Assembly: GCA_041738135.1 (NCBI GenBank)
Contig: JBGSQK010000020.1
Span: forward strand, 18,082 to 82,081
Reading direction: 5' to 3'
Length of the DNA stretch: 64,000 nt
DNA from: Alphaproteobacteria bacterium
GTDB lineage: Bacteria; Pseudomonadota; Alphaproteobacteria; JAGOMX01
Of this stretch, positions 14,432 through 26,556 are shown one piece after another. The first letter of the stretch is position 1, and each line of letters starts with the position of its first letter. The notes beneath the pieces were generated by a model. It searched no databases and was not told the origin of the DNA. It saw nothing but the letters and a program-made list of their open reading frames with translations. The translations under genes and the position numbers were made by a program.

Positions 14432-14617
14432 TGGGGCTTTGCCCCACTTAACCTCTCCCCTTGTGGGAGAGGTCCGGAGCGAAGCGGAGGGGTGAGGGGC
14501 ACAAAAAAGCAATGTTTATCCCCCTCACCCGGCCTTCGGCCGACCTCTCCCACGGGGGGAGAGGTGAAGTCTCATGTTATTTTCTCAAATATCTTGGGGT
14601 TTGGGGCAAAGCCCCAA
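14432..14617. repeat. MITE-like palindromic element, family C, full-length copy flanked by a GGGGCTTTGCCCC/GGGGCAAAGCCCC hairpin pair
   Basis: TTAACCTCTCCCCTTGTGGGAGAGGTCCGGAGCGAAGCGGAGGGGTGAGGG...CCCTCACCCGGCC...CCTCTCCCACGGGGGGAGAGGTGAAG, with small GC hairpins at both flanks. Confidence 0.7.
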
Positions 14618-17049: not shown

Positions 17050-17120
17050 AATTGCCCCTCTTTATTTTTGTTTATTATAGCATTGATGTGAGGGGGGCAC
17101 TATAGGCATTAAGGTGCCAT

Positions 17121-17175
17121 TTAACCTCTCCCCTTGTGGGAGAGGTCCGGAGCGAAGCGTAGGGGTGAAGGGACT
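17121..17175. repeat. Family C element, half copy
   Basis: TTAACCTCTCCCCTTGTGGGAGAGGTCCGGAGCGAAGCGTAGGGGTGAAGGG is identical to the left arm of the copy at 14448. Confidence 0.65.
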
Positions 17176-17263
17176 AACAAGCCGCTAGCTGCATCTTACA
17201 CAGGGTAAAAGGTGAATTTAAACATCCCTAACGGAGGCTTTGAAATGGTCACTATTATTTGGC

Positions 17264-18970: not shown

Positions 18971-21766
18971 ATGACAACGGATTATAAAGACTCAGTTTTT
19001 CTGCCTAAAACAGACTTTTCCATGCGGGCCAATCTTTCCCAAAAAGAGCCTGAGATTTTAAAGTCTTGGAATGATCGCAATCAATTTGCGCAGATGACAG
19101 AAATCCGTGAAGGTGCTCAGAAATTTATTCTGCACGATGGCCCCCCTTACGCCAACGGGCCAATTCACATTGGCACAGCCATGAATAAAATTTTGAAGGA
19201 CATTGTCAATCGTTCCTATCACCTGCTGGGACGTCAAATCGTTTACATTCCAGGCTGGGACTGTCATGGGCTTCCTATCGAAGCCAAGATTGAAGAAGAA
19301 TTCCGTAAGCAGAAAAAAACTCGCCATGATATTCCGGTCATTGAATTCCGCAAGGAATGCCGTGCCTATGCGCGTAAATGGATTGATGTGCAACGAGAGC
19401 AATTCAAACGCTTAGGTGTTTGGGCCGATTGGGATCATCCTTATATGACCATCGAGAAGAGCACCGAAGCCCAAATAGTCCGCGAGATGAGCAAATGTTT
19501 GCTCAATGGCTCCCTATACCGCGGCGAAAAGCCAGTTATGTGGTCCGTGGTCGAACAAACCGCATTGGCAGAAGCTGAAATCGAATACCATGACCATAAA
19601 TCTTCCTCAGTTTATGTGCGTTTTCCTATAGTTAAAGCAAGCTCTCCTGTATTTGAAGGTGCGGGAGCCGTTATCTGGACGACGACGCCGTGGACCCTAC
19701 CCGCCAATCGTGCCATCGCCTATGGGGATGAATTGGATTACGTTTTACTAGAAGTGGGAACTGTAGAAGAAAGCCTAGCCAAATCTGGCGACAAACTCAT
19801 TCTCGCCAAAGAACTGCAGGATGCGGTTTGCAAGCAACTGGGCATCACCGATTTCAAAATCGCCCACACATTCAAAGGATCCGAACTAGCCGGAACTATT
19901 TGCAAACACCCATTTGCAGACCAAGGTTATGACTTTGAAGTCCCCATGCTTCCAGGCGATCACGTCACCACCGAAGCAGGTACAGGCTTGGTTCATACAG
20001 CTCCAGCCCATGGTATCGAAGACTTTTATTTAGGTATGAAATATGGTCTAGAAGTGACAAAATTCGTACAAGGCGATGGCCTTTATTCTGATGACCTACC
20101 TTTGTTTGGCGGCCTCCATGTCTATAAAGCAGCAGGCCCCGTTATAGAAAAACTCATTGAAGTGAACGGCCTACTTTACCAAGGCGAAATACTGCACAGC
20201 TATCCCCATTCGTGGCGCTCAAAAGCCCCCTTGATCTATCGCACCACCCCACAATGGTTTCTATCCATGGAAAAAACCGGTTTGCGGGACAAAGCTTTAC
20301 AGGCCATTCGTGAAGTAAACTGGTTCCCAGAAAAAGGGCAACGTCGCATTGAATCTTTCGTGGAAGGAAGGCCAGACTGGTGCCTGTCCCGTCAAAGATC
20401 ATGGGGCGTTCCCATTGCTATCTTCATGCACAAGAAAACCCACGAACCATTAAGGGACGAAACAGTTCAAAACCGAATTGCTGATATTTTTGAGCAAGAA
20501 GGTGCAGACGTTTGGTTTGAAGGCGACAAAGCTCGCTTCTTAGGACCCGACCACAACCCTGACGACTACATACAAATCATGGATATTCTAGACGTGTGGT
20601 TTGACTCCGGTTGCAGCCATGCATTCGTTCTTGAAGCTCGCAAGAGCGAAGGACTCACCTGGCCAGCGGATCTTTACTTAGAAGGCTCAGACCAACATCG
20701 TGGCTGGTTCCAAACCTCATTGCTAGAAGCCTGCGGCACCAGAGGCAAAGCTCCCTATAAAAATGTACTCACCCACGGCTATGTACTGGACGACAAGGGC
20801 CGTAAAATGTCCAAGTCCCTAGGCAACGTGATCGATCCAGTCGCCATCGCTGACGAGATGGGCGTTGAAATGCTCAGACTTTGGGTTGCCAGCTCAGACG
20901 TCTCCGAAGACATCCGCATTGCCAAGGAGCGCATGAGTTATCAGCAAGACACCTACAGGCGCTTGCGCAATACTTTAAGGTACCTGCTAGGCGGTCTCAA
21001 AGACTTCAATGAATCAGAAAAAATCGAAACCTCCGCCATGCCCCAGCTGGAACAATGGGTTTTGCATCGACTATATGAACTAGACCAAACCATGCGCGAA
21101 TGCATCACCAATTTTGACTTCCAGAACTGGTTTACGGAACTGCACAATTTCTGTTCCGTCGATTTGTCGTCATTCTACTTCGATATCCGCAAAGATGTTC
21201 TTTACTGCGATTCACCAGACGACCTGACACGCCGTTCCATGAGAACCGTTTTTGATCAGCTGTTCAACTGCCTGACCACATGGATGGCTCCCGTACTTTG
21301 CTTTACCACAGAAGAAGCGTGGAGATGCCGCTACGGGGATGAAAGTTCTGTTCATTTACAGACCTTCCCCACAATTCCCGAATCCTGGAAAAATGCAAAG
21401 CATGCATCCCTGTTTAACGAAGTACGCAAATACCGCCGCCTGATGACCGGCGCCTTAGAAGGCGCTCGCGCAGATGGCGTCATCGGATCAAGTTTACAAG
21501 CAGTCATTGATATCTATGACCCAACGGGAGCATTACCTCAAAACATAGACTGGTCAGAAGTAGCCATTACCTCAGGCGCAGCAATTCTAAACCAACCAGC
21601 CCCGGAAGGCGCATACGGCATCAGCGATAACGAGAAAATCGGCATCGTGGTTAAACTCGCCCCAGGCGAAAAATGCCAACGCTGCTGGAAAGTTCTGGAA
21701 GAAGTTCATAACAAAGACTTATGTAATCGCTGCGATGAAGTGGTATCGAAACAAACCGCAGCATAA
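18971..21766 (+). CDS. ileS: Isoleucine--tRNA ligase
   Basis: MTTDYKDSVFLPKTDFSMRANL, the HIGH motif (PPYANGPIHIGTAMNK), KMSKS and a C-terminal zinc finger (CQRCWKVLEEVHNKDLCNRCDEV). The start is taken at the Met aligning with the E. coli IleRS N-terminus. Confidence 0.9.
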   Translation: MTTDYKDSVFLPKTDFSMRANLSQKEPEILKSWNDRNQFAQMTEIREGAQKFILHDGPPYANGPIHIGTAMNKILKDIVNRSYHLLGRQIVYIPGWDCHGLPIEAKIEEEFRKQKKTRHDIPVIEFRKECRAYARKWIDVQREQFKRLGVWADWDHPYMTIEKSTEAQIVREMSKCLLNGSLYRGEKPVMWSVVEQTALAEAEIEYHDHKSSSVYVRFPIVKASSPVFEGAGAVIWTTTPWTLPANRAIAYGDELDYVLLEVGTVEESLAKSGDKLILAKELQDAVCKQLGITDFKIAHTFKGSELAGTICKHPFADQGYDFEVPMLPGDHVTTEAGTGLVHTAPAHGIEDFYLGMKYGLEVTKFVQGDGLYSDDLPLFGGLHVYKAAGPVIEKLIEVNGLLYQGEILHSYPHSWRSKAPLIYRTTPQWFLSMEKTGLRDKALQAIREVNWFPEKGQRRIESFVEGRPDWCLSRQRSWGVPIAIFMHKKTHEPLRDETVQNRIADIFEQEGADVWFEGDKARFLGPDHNPDDYIQIMDILDVWFDSGCSHAFVLEARKSEGLTWPADLYLEGSDQHRGWFQTSLLEACGTRGKAPYKNVLTHGYVLDDKGRKMSKSLGNVIDPVAIADEMGVEMLRLWVASSDVSEDIRIAKERMSYQQDTYRRLRNTLRYLLGGLKDFNESEKIETSAMPQLEQWVLHRLYELDQTMRECITNFDFQNWFTELHNFCSVDLSSFYFDIRKDVLYCDSPDDLTRRSMRTVFDQLFNCLTTWMAPVLCFTTEEAWRCRYGDESSVHLQTFPTIPESWKNAKHASLFNEVRKYRRLMTGALEGARADGVIGSSLQAVIDIYDPTGALPQNIDWSEVAITSGAAILNQPAPEGAYGISDNEKIGIVVKLAPGEKCQRCWKVLEEVHNKDLCNRCDEVVSKQTAA

Positions 21767-21817
21767 AAGGTTGTTTTTATGCATACCTCGCTCATTCTCA
21801 ACAAATGGGCGGGGTAA

Positions 21818-22816
21818 CTATCCCTTAATGACTTTGACATAATCCTTAACTACGAAGAATTCTGCAGGCATCCCGTGCACATCATCGCGCAAATTGCTTC
21901 CGATTTCAGGATAGCCTTCTCCTGTTTCAAAGCTCTGAAACTTCAATGGCCCAACCAACTTCCTAGCCCTTTCTGAGATTCTATCTTCCGTAAAATTGCT
22001 GTCATAAACCAAACTGCAAGGGTTATAGGTATATTCAATTCCATCACGTTTTTCCACAGGGGAGCAGCTGATGCCCCTCAAAAAAGAAAAGTGGTTTTTT
22101 TGGGGACCGATGTCAACTTTGTATGGCCTTGAATTTAGAATAAAACGACTTTCATCTGTACCAGCGTCGATTAGCTCCTGGGTCTCTTTACGGGTGACCT
22201 CAGAGAGGGCAAAAACACTACAGCTGGCTAAATTAACACCCGGAAGGTAAATAGCGCCCTCTGGCTTAAGGAGTCTAACAATACGAATCATCCTAATTGT
22301 ATCCCATTCAGCAAATTTAAGCACAGACCAATCAAAATAGATCTTGCTTACAGGGCCATTAAATTTAACTTTGCCTGTATCTTGAGGAAGGAGCAGCGCT
22401 ATCAAATGATTCCAATCATCCATCTTGTTAAAGTCAGCATAAAAAATAGGGGAACGTTCATTGGCTGATCTAAAATCGACCCTTTCATCATTGGTGAAAA
22501 ATATTCGGACGGGTGCTTTAAAGGGGTACTGACCTACGCCATTCTCACGCGCTTCCCTTTCCCTGTCTTGATCGATCAATCTTTTCATATGGTTTTCATA
22601 AGGACCGGCACCAAGGACGATATGTAACTCTCGCCCTTCTTGTAGGGCAAACTGAGGTGCCCGCTCCAAGTAAACCTTGAGGTTTCTGTCCGCATTAAAC
22701 TGCTTGCTCAGCTCTACACTCCGAGCACTTTCTTGCTCATTATAAAAAGCTGTAGCGGAGGCAGCACTATTAAAGCCTAGGGCTAATAAGGAAATCGCAA
22801 AAATTTTCTTCAACAT
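21818..22816 (-). CDS. Hypothetical secreted protein with weak Rossmann/methyltransferase-like motifs
   Basis: The 332-aa ORF has a signal peptide (MLKKIFAISLLALGFNSAASA). Possible motif I-like (HIVLGAGPYE) and motif III-like (LLKPEGAIY) segments are seen. There is no confident family assignment. Confidence 0.45.
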   Translation of the reverse strand: MLKKIFAISLLALGFNSAASATAFYNEQESARSVELSKQFNADRNLKVYLERAPQFALQEGRELHIVLGAGPYENHMKRLIDQDREREARENGVGQYPFKAPVRIFFTNDERVDFRSANERSPIFYADFNKMDDWNHLIALLLPQDTGKVKFNGPVSKIYFDWSVLKFAEWDTIRMIRIVRLLKPEGAIYLPGVNLASCSVFALSEVTRKETQELIDAGTDESRFILNSRPYKVDIGPQKNHFSFLRGISCSPVEKRDGIEYTYNPCSLVYDSNFTEDRISERARKLVGPLKFQSFETGEGYPEIGSNLRDDVHGMPAEFFVVKDYVKVIKG

Positions 22817-23043
22817 ATTTTACTCCAATAAATATTCATCAGCCTATCTAAAATATGGGGCCAATTCGTAATGGCCTATATATATGATATATATGACTAG
22901 ATTTTAATCTGTCAAGTAATCTCGATTATTTTGATACATGGGGACTGCTACGTTAGTAAATGGTTCAGGGGCTTCCGGGACACTAAAAATCTGCAAACGC
23001 ACATAGCTTTCAAGTTTTTCATACCAGAAGGCGCATACGGCTC

Positions 23044-23185
23044 CATCGATAACGAGTATAGGCATCGTAGTAAAGCTCGCCCCAGGCGAAAAATGCCAAC
23101 GCTGCAGGAAAGTCTTAGAAGAAGTGCATAACAAGGACCTGTGCAATCGTTGCGACGACGTGATGGCAAACGAACCGCTGCCTAA
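23044..23185 (+). pseudogene. Displaced, frameshifted remnant of the ileS 3' end
   Basis: The fragment is about 85% identical at DNA level to ileS 21602..21766 (GAAGGCGCATACGGC...GCCCCAGGCGAAAAATGCCAACGCTGC...CATAACAA...), but an indel breaks the frame. It lies 1.28 kb downstream of the intact ileS stop. Confidence 0.8.
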
Positions 23186-23258
23186 AGATTTTTTTATCAC
23201 TTGCAACCTCGCTCTATCGCAAGATTAGAGCGAGGAAGCAAACAGAACGCATTCAAGG

Positions 23259-24146
23259 TTAGCGCTTCTTTTGAAGGTCTTTTTTAAGGCCTTCAATTGC
23301 GGATTTTATATTAACTTGGCCCAGTCTATAGATTTTATCCTGACAGCCATCGTCAAAGGTTTCCACATCTTCAAAAGGAAGACTTATTATAAAGTCAGCC
23401 CCTTTAAGAGCCAACTTTGAATGGTGCAAATAACTAATTTCCAGAGATCTTTTAGCAACACCAAACAAATGGTTGGGAGCTTTCTTACCGAGTTTACCGG
23501 ATAGATCAACGGCAATGACGTATTTAGCTCCTAACTGTCGAGCCGTCTCAACAGGACAAGGGCTAGCCACACCGCCATCCACGTAATACTGACCATTAAT
23601 ATTAACAGGCTGAAAGACGCCTGGATAAGCAGCAGATGCCATCACAGCATCGGTTATAGATCCTTGGCCAAAAGCTGTGGGGTCGCCAAATTCAAGATTA
23701 GTCGCCACCGCAACAAAAGGTATTTTCATTTCTTCTATATTTTTTGATTTCAAATGCTTATTTAGAAAATTCTCGAGAGCCACACCACGGGAGAGTCCGA
23801 ACGTAATGTTTCCAAAAGCGAAATCGAGCAAATCGCTACGAGTTTGTTTTAACAAGTCCTCCTTAAGACTTTCTAAATTGACCCCATCAGCATAAAAAGC
23901 ACCAATTATAGCTCCAGCGCTACATCCAACGATTAAATCAGGCTTAATTCCTGCAGCCTCTAATTCTTCCAAGATAGCAAGGTGAGCAATTCCTTTTACT
24001 CCACCGCCTCCAAGAACCAAGGCCGTATTAATGTTCTTGTAAGCTGGCAGCTTCGGATGGCTACACTTTTCATAATGTGAAAAATTCAAGCTGTAACAGC
24101 CCGATAAAAAGATAGGCAACAAAAGTGCAGTTAACTTAAGCCTCAT
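23259..24146 (-). CDS. Patatin-like phospholipase, predicted lipoprotein
   Basis: It has the oxyanion GGGxxG (GGGGVKG), the GxSxG nucleophile (GCSAG), a catalytic DGG (YVDGGV) and a lipobox LSGC in the signal peptide (MRLKLTALLLPIFLSGCYS). The start is taken at MRLK. Confidence 0.8.
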   Translation of the reverse strand: MRLKLTALLLPIFLSGCYSLNFSHYEKCSHPKLPAYKNINTALVLGGGGVKGIAHLAILEELEAAGIKPDLIVGCSAGAIIGAFYADGVNLESLKEDLLKQTRSDLLDFAFGNITFGLSRGVALENFLNKHLKSKNIEEMKIPFVAVATNLEFGDPTAFGQGSITDAVMASAAYPGVFQPVNINGQYYVDGGVASPCPVETARQLGAKYVIAVDLSGKLGKKAPNHLFGVAKRSLEISYLHHSKLALKGADFIISLPFEDVETFDDGCQDKIYRLGQVNIKSAIEGLKKDLQKKR

Positions 24147-24362
24147 CAAGCCTTCCAAATCAAATTGTATGTACATATATGTTTATTCTATATTTCACTA
24201 AAGACAATCTCACAACGGCATTACAAAATGGGATATAACTCGAAATTTCTATGTCAGTCAAGAATATTTCGGAATAAGCATCCGCTGATCTAATTGACTG
24301 CAACTTTTATCTGTTGTATCAGTTATTTTTGACAGACAATTCAAACTGTAAGACAAAGAATT

Positions 24363-25415
24363 ATGAACACAAATTTTACCTTATTTCTTCCAAAACAGAT
24401 GCCTAGCGAATGGCAGGAAATTCCCAAGTCACAATCATATCGAGAAGAACTGCCGCCATATAACATGCAAGACCCATCCACGCGAACCGCCTGGTCCAAT
24501 TGGAGTGGGATTCATAACTCCAGTTACAAAACGGATTTTATGCATCGATCAGGATCCATCATCCGCTGTAAACAGTATCTATACGATTTAGGCCCCTTGT
24601 CGGCGAGCGACCATGCGGCGCTTTATGACCATTTTCATTGGAGATTAGGCCACCGCATATCTGGTGATCGTATTTATTGGCATGGATACGATTACGCCGT
24701 AAAACCTGCCTTGACGTTTCAGGATTCGGGCACCAACATTGAACTACGGGTGGTTCAAGGCGAAGTGTCGACCGAGGAGCTCATTACATTAGCCGAGCAT
24801 CTGCAGCCGGAAAATGATCTGCTAAATAACACGCCTTTTGCTGAAAAAAGTTACTGGTCTCGTTATCCACGCTACGATCTAAATCTCTATATACCAGATT
24901 CCCAATACAAAATCCCTTCCAGCCTATGGAAACTCCGCTGGCCCTTATGGCAAGCAGAGCATCGTTGGGAATTGTTTGAAAAAGACTTGGTTTCAGACGT
25001 GATGAATCGCATATTGCAGGAACTAAGACAATTTGGATTTGAGTCCGACAGCATATGCACCTTTGGTGAACAGCTGGAAGTTCAACTATTTCTTAAGCAC
25101 AAACAGCATCCAAATATCCATGGCTGGCTCCGTCGCTTGAACTCAAAATCAAGCCCTCTCAAACAACCCAGGCCCGATCGCTTGCCTGAAATGGATTCCT
25201 TTAGTGGATTTACAGGATTCGGGATCAACGTACTGGAGTCATCCAAATTCGAGACACCCATTTACATAGCAAGCGTGAGCAAAGAAATTGGCCCGTTTGA
25301 CATCATTTGGTGGGACAAAGGTCATATGTATCTTGTTCAGATAGTAGCTTCAACGGAATTTGATTTGAAAAAAGTTCTTCTGCTGGCTGAAAGGATAGAA
25401 GGCAATCTTGAGTAA
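24363..25415 (+). CDS. Hypothetical protein (350 aa), no recognisable motif
   Basis: A long ORF in an accessory-looking cluster, Trp/His-rich, with no signal peptide. Confidence 0.45.
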   Translation: MNTNFTLFLPKQMPSEWQEIPKSQSYREELPPYNMQDPSTRTAWSNWSGIHNSSYKTDFMHRSGSIIRCKQYLYDLGPLSASDHAALYDHFHWRLGHRISGDRIYWHGYDYAVKPALTFQDSGTNIELRVVQGEVSTEELITLAEHLQPENDLLNNTPFAEKSYWSRYPRYDLNLYIPDSQYKIPSSLWKLRWPLWQAEHRWELFEKDLVSDVMNRILQELRQFGFESDSICTFGEQLEVQLFLKHKQHPNIHGWLRRLNSKSSPLKQPRPDRLPEMDSFSGFTGFGINVLESSKFETPIYIASVSKEIGPFDIIWWDKGHMYLVQIVASTEFDLKKVLLLAERIEGNLE

Positions 25416-25476
25416 TCTCAAGATGGCCTCTTAGCATTAATTTTGAGCATATTTCAAAACTCAAACGGATGTTAAA

Positions 25477-25610
25477 ATTCACCTCTCCCCTCTGTGGGAG
25501 AGGTCGGCCGCAGGCCGGGTGAGGGGGTCCTGCAGCAGTCTGGGAGCGGCTTGTAAGCACCCTCACCCCTCCGCTTCGCTCCGGACCTCTCCCACAAGGG
25601 GAGAGGCGAA
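25477..25610. repeat. MITE-like palindromic element, family C, copy 4
   Basis: TTCACCTCTCCCCTCTGTGGGAGAGGTCGGCC...GGTGAGGGGG...CCCTCACCCCTCCGCTTCGCTCCGGACCTCTCCCACAAGGGGAGAGGCGAA, sitting between convergent genes. Confidence 0.7.
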
Positions 25611-25629
25611 AAGCGGTTTCGAAAAGCCT

Positions 25630-26556
25630 TCAATTATCTAATCTAAGCGTCGTTCTCAACGCACCCATTATCTCATCCTGGCTGTCATACCTAGGTATGG
25701 TAATGTAGTCAACACCCCATAGGCAGTCTAAAACCGTCTTGATAATTGGACGCTTTGTGCCCATGATTTCTTTTATAGTCAATGCTTTGAGAGCTGGGTC
25801 ATGAGGCTTTTCAAGCAAGTCCAAGACCGCAACCAGTTCTCTGGCAGGCGTATGATTTGCTCTTTTTGCAGCATGTAACTGATTGTATGCCATTAAAGGA
25901 TTTACCACATCCACACCCAAAAATCTGAATGTATTGAGATACTCAACCCGGGCCATTGGATTTCTAATTTTATCAGTACACTTGAAAAAGTCAGCAACGT
26001 CTCCTTCTGCAAAATATGAGTCAAAAGCCGCTGCAAAGTCCAAAGCATGTGGTTGCAAAAGACTCATTTCTATACCGCCATAAAATTTGCCATGTAGCCA
26101 AGTACCGGCGCAATCCAAAGCAAATTGAGCTGCCCCTTCCTCTAGCTGTTTTGCATGATATAACATGTTCGGGAAATCAAATGATTCACCAAATGACATC
26201 AACATTTCTGTATAGAGCCATTGCAATGATTCTCCGGAAGTTTCGGCATTGTACGCAAGCTTCCTTAAAGCAAATAATGATCCTTCTCTAGCTTGGTATA
26301 TAAGATCATTTCTTTCCTCTAATTGTCTTTTACTTTCTTCTAATTGCTCTTCTCGTTGTCTCAAAAATGATTCGAATGATTCAATTGCGGCTTTTCCATC
26401 TGCTAAAAAATATTTAGCTACTGCACTATGGATGGGAGCAGTAAATTTAATTTTTACACTATCTGGTTGTTCAATATCACTTGCCATACATGTGCTGGAA
26501 AATGCTACGGATGAGACTAAAGCTAGAATTGTCAGTGACTTGCGTTTAAATTGCAT
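25630..26556 (-). CDS. Hypothetical secreted protein (308 aa)
   Basis: It has a signal peptide (MQFKRKSLTILALVSSVAFSSTCMA) and a charged coiled-coil segment (REEQLEESKRQLEERNDL). No family is recognised. Confidence 0.45.
   Translation of the reverse strand: MQFKRKSLTILALVSSVAFSSTCMASDIEQPDSVKIKFTAPIHSAVAKYFLADGKAAIESFESFLRQREEQLEESKRQLEERNDLIYQAREGSLFALRKLAYNAETSGESLQWLYTEMLMSFGESFDFPNMLYHAKQLEEGAAQFALDCAGTWLHGKFYGGIEMSLLQPHALDFAAAFDSYFAEGDVADFFKCTDKIRNPMARVEYLNTFRFLGVDVVNPLMAYNQLHAAKRANHTPARELVAVLDLLEKPHDPALKALTIKEIMGTKRPIIKTVLDCLWGVDYITIPRYDSQDEIMGALRTTLRLDN

Follow-up and report, generated by a model that had tools for sequence, protein, structure and literature searches.

Organisation of the ileS locus

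The window, the whole 64,000-nucleotide stretch of DNA analysed here, comes from an uncultured alphaproteobacterium and contains an intact isoleucyl-tRNA synthetase gene (ileS), the 3' end of which recurs, in damaged form, on the far side of a single gene for a putative exported protein. The features of the locus are as follows.

18971..21766, + strand: ileS (isoleucyl-tRNA synthetase), intact, 931 aa (Pfam tRNA-synt_1, Anticodon_1, zf-FPG_IleRS)
21602..21814, + strand: repeat copy 1, functional, the last 165 nt of ileS and 48 nt downstream with the terminator hairpin
21605..21619, + strand: 15-nt block GAAGGCGCATACGGC, the same in both copies (also 23027-23041), at the extreme left edge of the repeat
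21656..21685, + strand: longest identical run in the repeat, 30 nt, encoding LAPGEKCQRC (also 23076-23105)
21785..21815, + strand: hairpin hp1 (ACCUCGCUCAUUC...GAAUGGGCGGGGU), terminator
21786..22921, no strand: 1136-nt unit of hairpin, cargo gene and 105-nt upstream region, 87% shared with metagenome contig L082
21818..22816, - strand: cargo gene, the sole gene between the repeats; its 332-aa product has a signal peptide and a divergent core predicted to resemble class I methyltransferases
22922..23023, no strand: 102-nt spacer separating the cargo unit from the displaced ileS end, no similarity elsewhere in the window
23024..23185, + strand: repeat copy 2, displaced ileS 3' end, a pseudogene fragment carrying W->R and two frameshifts
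23201..23241, no strand: hairpin hp2 (CCTCGCTCTA-9 nt-TAGAGCGAGG; extended stem TTGCAA../..AAGCAA)
23259..24146, - strand: patatin-like phospholipase gene with lipobox (Pfam PF01734, 3e-38; NCBIfam RssA-like)

The upstream gene order porin-ACDH-ELM1-greA-ileS is conserved in relatives, and the closest ileS relatives (72-83% aa identical) have flagellar genes downstream; the 3' end of ileS is a synteny breakpoint within the clade. Hairpin hp1 folds on the + strand with -20 kcal/mol (z -4.1; - strand z -1.7) and, because its stem uses G-U pairs, is predicted to be stable only in ileS-sense RNA. Hairpin hp2 (-24 kcal/mol, z -6.7) is homologous to hp1 in position and left arm, and separates the displaced end from the convergent patatin gene. 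The hairpin was rejected as a dispersed REP-like site, being found only at the two ileS-end copies in the 64 kb, and an Rfam search of 21400-24400 returned nothing credible. Nothing resembling the spacer was found in the fetched loci or elsewhere in the window, and the ORFs crossing it gave no family match. Between 21.8 and 26.6 kb the GC content of the accessory genes is 0.40-0.45, compared with 0.48 for ileS, a contrast which does not decide on which of the two flanks the newcomer lies.

The repeated ileS 3' end

Local alignment of 21602-21801 with 23024-23222 gave a score of 194, compared with 18.7±2.7 (maximum 37) for 200 shuffles. The ungapped coding blocks were identical at 118 of 139 positions (85%), as the preliminary description had proposed for a frameshifted reappearance of the ileS end. 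The second copy, which had been placed at 23044-23185, starts at 23024, and the duplication, described as the last ~165 bp of ileS, does comprise that coding part and runs on for 48 nt beyond the stop codon, through the terminator hairpin. With relaxed scoring, 21602-21814 and 23024-23235 were 77% identical over 216 columns, the hairpins after the stop codon being included in both. The repeat is direct, with both copies in the same orientation and 1.42 kb apart. To the left of 23024 the similarity is lost abruptly in the alignment, and the junction 23023/23024 is non-homologous.

The frame of copy 2 is broken twice, by the deletion of 2 nt after 23056 and by an indel with a net loss of one nucleotide around 23163-23168, and its CxxCW zinc-finger motif has a W->R change. 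An identical left-edge run of the size of GAAGGCGCATACGGC arises in 12% of codon-column shuffles and is not significant alone; the block is a weak candidate for the crossover core. A third ileS fragment, sought as a sign of tandem accretion, was not found anywhere in the 64-kb window.

The gene between the repeats

The 1209 nt between the repeats hold one gene only, the - strand ORF of a secreted protein that had been noted before. Judged by eye, its product starts with a typical Sec signal peptide (MLKKIFAISLLALGFNSAASA|TA); AF2 pLDDT is below 50 over the first 25 residues, and the fold is predicted to be methyltransferase-like. The protein was also compared with YmfD, the methyltransferase next to the e14 attL, and showed no similarity, and this relationship was rejected.

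In metagenome contig L082 the 1136-nt unit sits between flanks which both differ from those of the window, and the cargo gene and hairpin are present there without any ileS-like segment. The L082 hairpin is weakened, matches hp1 of the window in 30 of 32 nt and is likewise linked to the cargo gene, the product of which is 83% identical (aa) to that of the window. Relatives of the cargo gene were found in ordinary chromosomal contexts (L082 and, adjoining a tRNA gene, L171), and the family was absent from the plasmid and phage collections. An ORF beside the unit in L082 (ORF83) was considered as the N-terminal domain of an integrase and rejected: it had no Pfam or PHROG match, its profile had no PDB sequence match, its homologues are fragments of 71-125 aa, it belongs to a dispersed repeat (96% shared with L087), and it starts 200 nt from the junction.

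Assembly support and search for relatives

The same arrangement with the same indels was present in the independent Logan assembly of SRR28170464 (L081), which differed from the window by 6 mismatches in 8442 nt, without gaps; all six lie in a REP element at 25544-25571. Exact sequence look-ups returned only the same organism. A protein scan of genome contigs for close ileS relatives gave at most 57% aa identity among the matches listed, and the second of the metagenome scans, queried with ileS residues 780-906, at most 54%. A degenerate DNA pattern for this ileS sub-clade had 0 matches in metagenome contigs and 0 in viral contigs, where no element with an ileS-like end came to light. One genome scan and two metagenome scans retrieved neither an empty nor an occupied ileS site from a close relative.

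Divergence of the two copies

The codons of the two copies differ mostly silently, in 15 of 20 cases (Sd 15 vs Nd 5; pS 0.52, pN 0.046, dN/dS 0.05, binomial p=3e-7), which excludes in-situ decay of a duplicate as the source of the pattern. The differences thus show that both ends, orthologous and functional, diverged under purifying selection in separate lineages, and one of the two ends is foreign. No available relative is as close to either copy as the copies are to each other (pS 0.65-0.95 for the relatives), and the silent divergence of the copies is higher than that between the cargo gene and its L082 homologue (pS 0.24). When sliding-window pS and pN against five relatives were used as a test for a mosaic ileS, silent sites were saturated along the whole gene (pS 0.6-0.95).

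Copy 2 is a pseudogene, and the earlier view of an old, decayed event is overstated: with a pN of 0.046 against the inter-copy pS of 0.52, the displaced copy has decayed little, and the insertion is therefore recent relative to the split of the two source lineages.

Origin of the junction

We read the junction as the fossil of an insertion that spared the ileS end. The likeliest route, to which we give a probability of roughly 45%, would be insertion by a tyrosine-type integrase with an attP mimicking the ileS 3' end, as for phage 21/e14 at icd; we infer the integrase from the anatomy of the junction only. Incoming foreign DNA would have carried its own last 165 nt of ileS and the ileS terminator, together with one exported methyltransferase-like gene and ~200 nt of upstream sequence, and its exchange with the chromosome would have taken place at the repeat's left edge (21602/23024). 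The ileS gene would now end in imported sequence that is still functional (copy 1, 21602-21814), and the original end with its own terminator would have been displaced 1422 nt downstream (copy 2, 23024-23235), where decay has begun. The integrase may later have been deleted from the element, or may have acted in trans. What remains would be an att-flanked single-gene remnant without integrase, comparable to a CIME, CIMEs being elements that have lost the integrase and are left as att-flanked remnants. A site-specific route is independent of sequence identity; a divergence of about 16% strongly reduces recombination by RecA-dependent routes. Tyrosine integrases are known to insert DNA at the 3' ends of protein-coding housekeeping genes (PMC4701971), and phage 21, e14 and NC-SV integrate at icd (PMC12803456). 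In an attP model the spacer would correspond to the P arm, in a recombination model to the far end of the donor DNA.

The order of intact gene end, cargo and displaced old end, recognised in the preliminary description, was confirmed at 21602-23235, and its overall reading is partly supported, by this geometry, by the foreign end and by the likeness of the junction to icd/e14/icdC. An integrase had been said to be absent nearby, and neither an integrase, excisionase or transposase nor a recognisable remnant of one was found by Pfam, NCBIfam and PHROG family matches between the repeats, in the spacer or among the ORFs called from 21.8 to 40 kb. Other points against an integrase route are the shortness of the 1209-nt segment with its single gene, the absence of the cargo family from the plasmid and phage collections, the lack of an ileS-like segment beside the gene and hairpin in L082, and the negative searches for ileS-like ends in viral contigs, for ileS as an att site in the literature and for an empty or occupied site in a close relative. 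The eroded cargo had alternatively been sought in the patatin cluster (to 26556), a reading that was dropped: the cluster lies outside the repeats, a geometry which does not fit, there is no third ileS fragment to its right, and two of its genes, hyp350 and hyp308 just right of patatin, have homologues 86-94% aa identical in the sister population (JGI). The patatin-like gene would instead have followed ileS directly before the insertion.

The main rival, which we consider unlikely though deserving serious weight, is homology-anchored illegitimate recombination without an integrase ('C-terminal displacement'), a mechanism defined as homology-facilitated illegitimate recombination in PMC3240628. 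Linear DNA from a related species, with the native order ileS-terminator-cargo, would have paired with the resident ileS somewhere upstream of 21602. An illegitimate joint would then have connected its non-homologous far end, the 102-nt spacer, to the resident gene at 165 nt from the stop codon; the same picture would result if a small circle had been taken up by a single RecA-mediated crossover. The expected orphan 3' fragment after a new end and cargo, with an abrupt junction upstream at 23024, is present, and like scars in T6SS and Rhs loci have been attributed to such a mechanism (PMC5361080). It also suits the lack of an integrase or remnant, a single insert gene of chromosomal type whose relatives are chromosomal (L082, L171) and in no case on plasmids or phages, and an ileS 3' end that is a synteny breakpoint in the clade. 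Hairpin hp1 is a terminator specific for the ileS sense and is also physically linked to the cargo gene in L082; therefore ileS, hp1 and cargo appear to have long been neighbours on the source chromosome. However, such events are less frequent than homologous recombination by orders of magnitude (PMC5361080) and would be further depressed by the anchor divergence of about 16%, and the model predicts neither an identical left-edge block nor so close a likeness to icd/e14. Under it, donor-type sequence would continue upstream of 21602 into the body of ileS, up to a homologous crossover, and the illegitimate joint would show microhomology; silent sites against all available relatives are saturated.

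The direction may also have been the reverse, which we regard as improbable. The order ileS-hp1-cargo would then be native, and the displaced fragment either the ragged left margin of a segment that came in (ileS fragment-hp2-patatin-..., from a related genome in which ileS directly abuts patatin, anchored by homology further right) or the remnant, after deletion, of a once complete second, foreign ileS. The hp1-cargo linkage in common with L082 (hairpin 30/32 nt) agrees with this, as does the patatin gene GC3 of 0.35, the second-lowest in the region. The 83% aa identity between the cargo protein and its L082 homologue is near the 86-94% of the neighbouring hypotheticals and is thus compatible with a vertically inherited cargo. 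Against this, landing of an ileS fragment 1.2 kb after ileS has no homology-driven reason unless it was guided by synteny, and the model therefore needs one illegitimate and one distant homologous junction. The presence of hyp350 and hyp308 in the sister population leaves little room for a foreign block, and the 64 kb hold no further ileS fragment.

Tandem duplication of the ileS end in place, with subsequent decay of the downstream copy, would account for a direct repeat in one orientation at 1.42 kb, but it is very improbable: neutral decay spreads substitutions evenly over the codon positions, contrary to the excess of silent changes (15/20, dN/dS 0.05, p=3e-7), and a silent divergence of 0.52 with just two small indels misfits long neutral decay. 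An assembly artefact joining two co-occurring relatives, conceivable in a MAG with a 30-nt identical run that a short-k assembler could bridge, is the least credible explanation, given a junction (23023/23024) without shared sequence on its left side, a truncated and frameshifted copy 2 that is impossible as the ileS of a living organism, and the identical structure in the second assembly (L081).

If the insertion spared the gene end as we propose, an essential aminoacyl-tRNA synthetase gene can be a landing site for acquired DNA, like icd in E. coli, and the scar gives a date and a direction to a horizontal acquisition in an uncultured alphaproteobacterium, the region downstream of ileS being completely remodelled there compared with relatives. 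A small family of exported methyltransferase-like proteins, so far without annotation, is also marked out as cargo that moves horizontally. There is a slim chance that the 1.4-kb unit is still mobilisable, as a miniature integrase-less element which a recombinase encoded elsewhere could recognise by the ileS 3' end or terminator, moving a single effector-like gene between uncultured alphaproteobacteria, with L082 as another landing site. In annotation, 23024-23185 and the 98-100-aa antisense ORF called over it should be labelled an ileS pseudogene fragment, not a gene.

Comparison with known systems

The insertion scar is of a known kind; ileS was not found reported as such a target, and a literature search found no paper naming it as an att site. 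A transposon or insertion sequence was rejected, as terminal inverted repeats were absent both from 21786/22921 and from the repeat borders, the ends of the cargo unit had no other repeats and there was no transposase. With an integron cassette the unit has in common a single gene, an imperfect palindrome at the 3' end and occurrence in two contexts (the window and L082). However, the ileS unit has no integron integrase (intI), attI or attC core motif and has its own upstream region, and its hairpin is the ileS terminator, confined to the two ileS-end copies in 64 kb rather than dispersed; this candidate was also rejected.

C-terminal displacement at Rhs, CDI and T6SS effector loci (PMC5361080) likewise supplies a new 3' end with downstream cargo and orphans the old end downstream, without an integrase. 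Those loci are polymorphic toxin genes in which the new end encodes a different toxin domain and an immunity gene, whereas at ileS, a housekeeping aminoacyl-tRNA synthetase gene, the old and new ends encode one and the same protein sequence, and a single event is visible rather than an array.

ICEs and IMEs are found in the 3' ends of fda, rplL, rpsI, rpmG, guaA and lysS, and their site-specific insertion keeps the target gene and leaves direct repeats (PMC4701971), as proposed here. The direct repeats there are of 12-54 bp, in contrast to 213 nt at ileS, the ileS insert contains no conjugation, mobilisation or recombination genes, and ileS is not among the targets in PMC4701971.

The E. coli K-12 icd/e14/icdC junction was measured here as a benchmark. 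The differences are that e14 has 15.2 kb with intE and xisE and the ileS insert 1.2 kb with one gene and no recombinase, that the ileS copies are 85% and the icd copies 93% identical, that the displaced ileS end is frameshifted while icdC is still in frame, and that the target here is the ileS of an uncultured alphaproteobacterium. The last 165 nt of icd borne by e14 were identical to icdC at 153 of 165 positions, with 11 of the 12 differences at codon position 3; the longest identical run was 29 nt, 11 nt at the left edge were identical, and the similarity ran through the terminator. In both systems, then, 165 nt are duplicated with mostly third-position differences, the terminator is included, the longest identical run is of ~30 nt and a left-edge block is present. 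In both, too, the end of a housekeeping gene with a terminator-like hairpin is supplied, the displaced 165-nt end lies across the insert, and the left boundary is sharp.

Repetition of the ileS 3' end

The last 165 nt of ileS, together with the following 48 nt, are present again 1.42 kb downstream. The features of the region are as follows.

18971-21766, + strand: ileS, intact by Pfam
21818-22816, - strand: the only gene between the two ileS copies, hereafter called the cargo gene, encoding 332 aa with a signal peptide judged by eye
22922-23023: spacer of 102 nt, beyond the 105-nt upstream region of the cargo gene
23259-26556: cluster of exported or unknown proteins, comprising a lipobox-bearing (LSGC) patatin-like phospholipase and two hypothetical proteins, one of 350 aa and one of 308 aa with a signal peptide

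Local alignment of 21602-21801 with 23024-23222 gave a score of 194, well above the background of shuffled sequences (18.7 ± 2.7), and with relaxed scoring the repeat extended over 21602-21814 (copy 1, the functional end) and 23024-23235 (copy 2, the displaced end). The ungapped coding blocks are identical at 118 of 139 positions. Copy 2 is an ileS pseudogene fragment: 2 nt are deleted after 23056, a further indel near 23163-23168 has a net effect of -1, and W is replaced by R in the zinc-finger motif CxxCW. The frameshifted reappearance of the ileS end reported in the preliminary description was borne out by the alignment and the two indels, but copy 2 begins at 23024 and not at 23044. An ORF of 98-100 aa antisense to the pseudogene fragment (22904-23206, - strand) was annotated as coding in the Logan assembly of SRR28170464 (contig L081, 2381-2677); no family supports it, and it is most likely an erroneous prediction.

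A strong hairpin lies after each ileS copy, with the left arm (ACCTCGCTC) common to both, and a repeat search placed the two post-stop hairpins in register. The first hairpin is an ileS terminator; since it depends on G-U pairs, good folding is confined to RNA in the ileS sense (z -4.1, compared with -1.7 on the opposite strand). No further occurrence of the hairpin motif and no third ileS fragment were found within the 64-kb window.

Divergence between the two ends

The ungapped blocks differ by 21 substitutions, of which 15 fall at codon position 3 and a further two, also silent, affect Leu codons. The Nei-Gojobori method, applied to 46 codons, gave Sd 15, Nd 5, pS 0.52, pN 0.046 and dN/dS 0.05, with a binomial p of 3e-7 against an even spread. 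All retrievable relatives are more distant from the two ends (pS 0.65-0.95) than these are from one another. Judged by the substitutions, the two were orthologous, selected gene ends from two lineages that were later united, so that one of them is foreign. Neutral decay of the displaced copy is bounded by the pN, and the event was therefore recent relative to the split of the source lineages; the proposed description as old and decayed makes it too old.

The cargo gene and its surroundings

The cargo protein belongs to no Pfam, NCBIfam or PHROG family and had only two matches among 5.8e9 clustered proteins. An exhaustive HMMER search yielded about 22 representatives of its family, none being found in plasmid and phage collections, and an AlphaFold model with the family alignment as input was confident (pLDDT 86.9). 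The sole close homologue (P0002, 83% aa identity) is encoded on a metagenome contig, L082, which matches the window only at 21786-22921 (87%, ungapped), corresponding to the hairpin, the gene and its upstream region; both flanks of this unit are unrelated to the window. The spacer had no match in a similarity search. Silent divergence of the cargo gene between the window and L082 (pS 0.24) is half of that between the ileS ends. The L082 hairpin is weaker (z -1.6), as expected if it had lost the role of terminating ileS.

A 48%-identical homologue (P0126) is followed in another contig (L171, 1425-1443) by a canonical terminator and then by the start of a tRNA gene; tRNA genes are another classical island-insertion neighbourhood. 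L082 (1906-2062) and another contig, L087 (3681-3837), also share a short dispersed element with a 71-125-aa ORF family (P0123-P0125) of unassigned function, which is 96% identical between them, whereas the cargo gene common to both organisms is only 87% identical. The L087 copy adjoins a hipBA module.

Most genes of the 23259-26556 cluster are lower in GC; GC3 is 0.32-0.35 in the 308-aa hypothetical and the patatin. To the right of the latter, both hypothetical genes have homologues of 86-94% identity on short JGI contigs, which means that there is a sister population, to which L082 is also assigned. A REP-like palindromic family (CCTCTCCCCTTGTGGGAGAGG ... GGGTGAGGGG) is intergenic at 14447-14569, 17120-17186 and 25478-25611, and is also found directly after ileS in a relative with 82% aa identity (L084, 3459-3549), at 92-94% nt identity, far above the 75% of the flanking genes.

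Synteny in relatives

The window comes from an uncultured alphaproteobacterium. Among the matches listed, the best genome representative for the C-terminal 399 aa of ileS had 57% aa identity; relatives at 72-83% are present in the protein database. Four relatives (L083, the P0005 contig, L168 and L169/L170) share the upstream order porin-ACDH-ELM1-greA-ileS and have fliE-flgC-flgB-csrA-...-fliP downstream of ileS, genes for which no homologue was found anywhere in the 64-kb window. Where L083, L168 and L169 keep this flagellar cluster, the window has, from 21767 on, exported or hypothetical proteins and then metabolic genes. L084 and L085 have still other sequences downstream, so that synteny within the clade breaks at the ileS 3' end. 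In L168 (1193-2683) the place of greA-ELM1 directly before ileS is taken by a hipA/HTH toxin-antitoxin pair; in at least one lineage, therefore, the upstream side is variable too.

Origin of the repeat

The robust part of the interpretation (about 0.85) is that a horizontal event set a foreign and a resident ileS end side by side, the junction lying 165 nt ahead of the stop codon, and left ileS intact. A site-specific integrase would have acted on an attP mimicking the ileS end; this route is tentatively favoured, at somewhat below even odds, because it is indifferent to the divergence of about 16%, because the anatomy equals that of a proven case, icd/e14, and because integration into housekeeping-gene ends is established (PMC4701971, PMC12803456). 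In agreement with the preliminary description, no integrase, and no excisionase or transposase domain, was found either in ORFs located between the two copies or among those called as far as 40 kb, nor were terminal inverted repeats found. An ORF of L082 at first taken as an integrase N-terminus was unsupported (no Pfam or PHROG match). Since a recombinase is absent, the locus cannot be classed as an integrative element today and is at most an att-flanked remnant. The gene-end-sparing insertion originally proposed is retained as far as the foreign end, the displaced old end and the icd/e14-like anatomy are concerned, but the lack of integrase traces counts against the integrase route.

The main rival, less likely, is recombination that needs no integrase, either an illegitimate event anchored by homology or a single crossover mediated by RecA. 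It suits both the cargo's chromosomal character and the old linkage of ileS, its hairpin and the cargo gene; a divergence of about 16%, however, would strongly depress RecA-dependent routes. In T6SS and Rhs loci, homology-anchored illegitimate recombination is the proposed origin of displaced 3' ends (PMC3240628, PMC5361080). The opposite reading, in which the newcomer is the displaced fragment together with the patatin, is distinctly less probable. Duplication of the ileS end in situ is very improbable, as in-place decay of a duplicate cannot explain the silent-biased pattern. An assembly artefact, the least credible explanation, is contradicted by the truncation and frameshifts of copy 2 and by L081, another assembly of this organism with identical structure, which has only six mismatches to the window, all inside a REP element distant from the ileS repeat.

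Comparison with icd/e14 of E. coli

Gene-end-sparing insertion scars are already known; no report of ileS as a target was found. In the E. coli K-12 annotation the left end of e14 lies 165 nt ahead of the icd stop codon, and at its right end is icdC, a pseudogene of 165 nt. The icd end and icdC are identical at 153 of 165 positions, with 11 of the 12 differences at codon position 3 and a longest identical run of 29 nt. Their left edge is marked by 11 identical nt, and the similarity extends beyond the stop codon to take in the terminator hairpin. The ileS scar is alike in its 165 nt, its silent-biased differences, its inclusion of the terminator, its longest run (30 nt) and its identical left-edge block of 15 nt, which taken alone is not significant, arising in 12% of codon shuffles.
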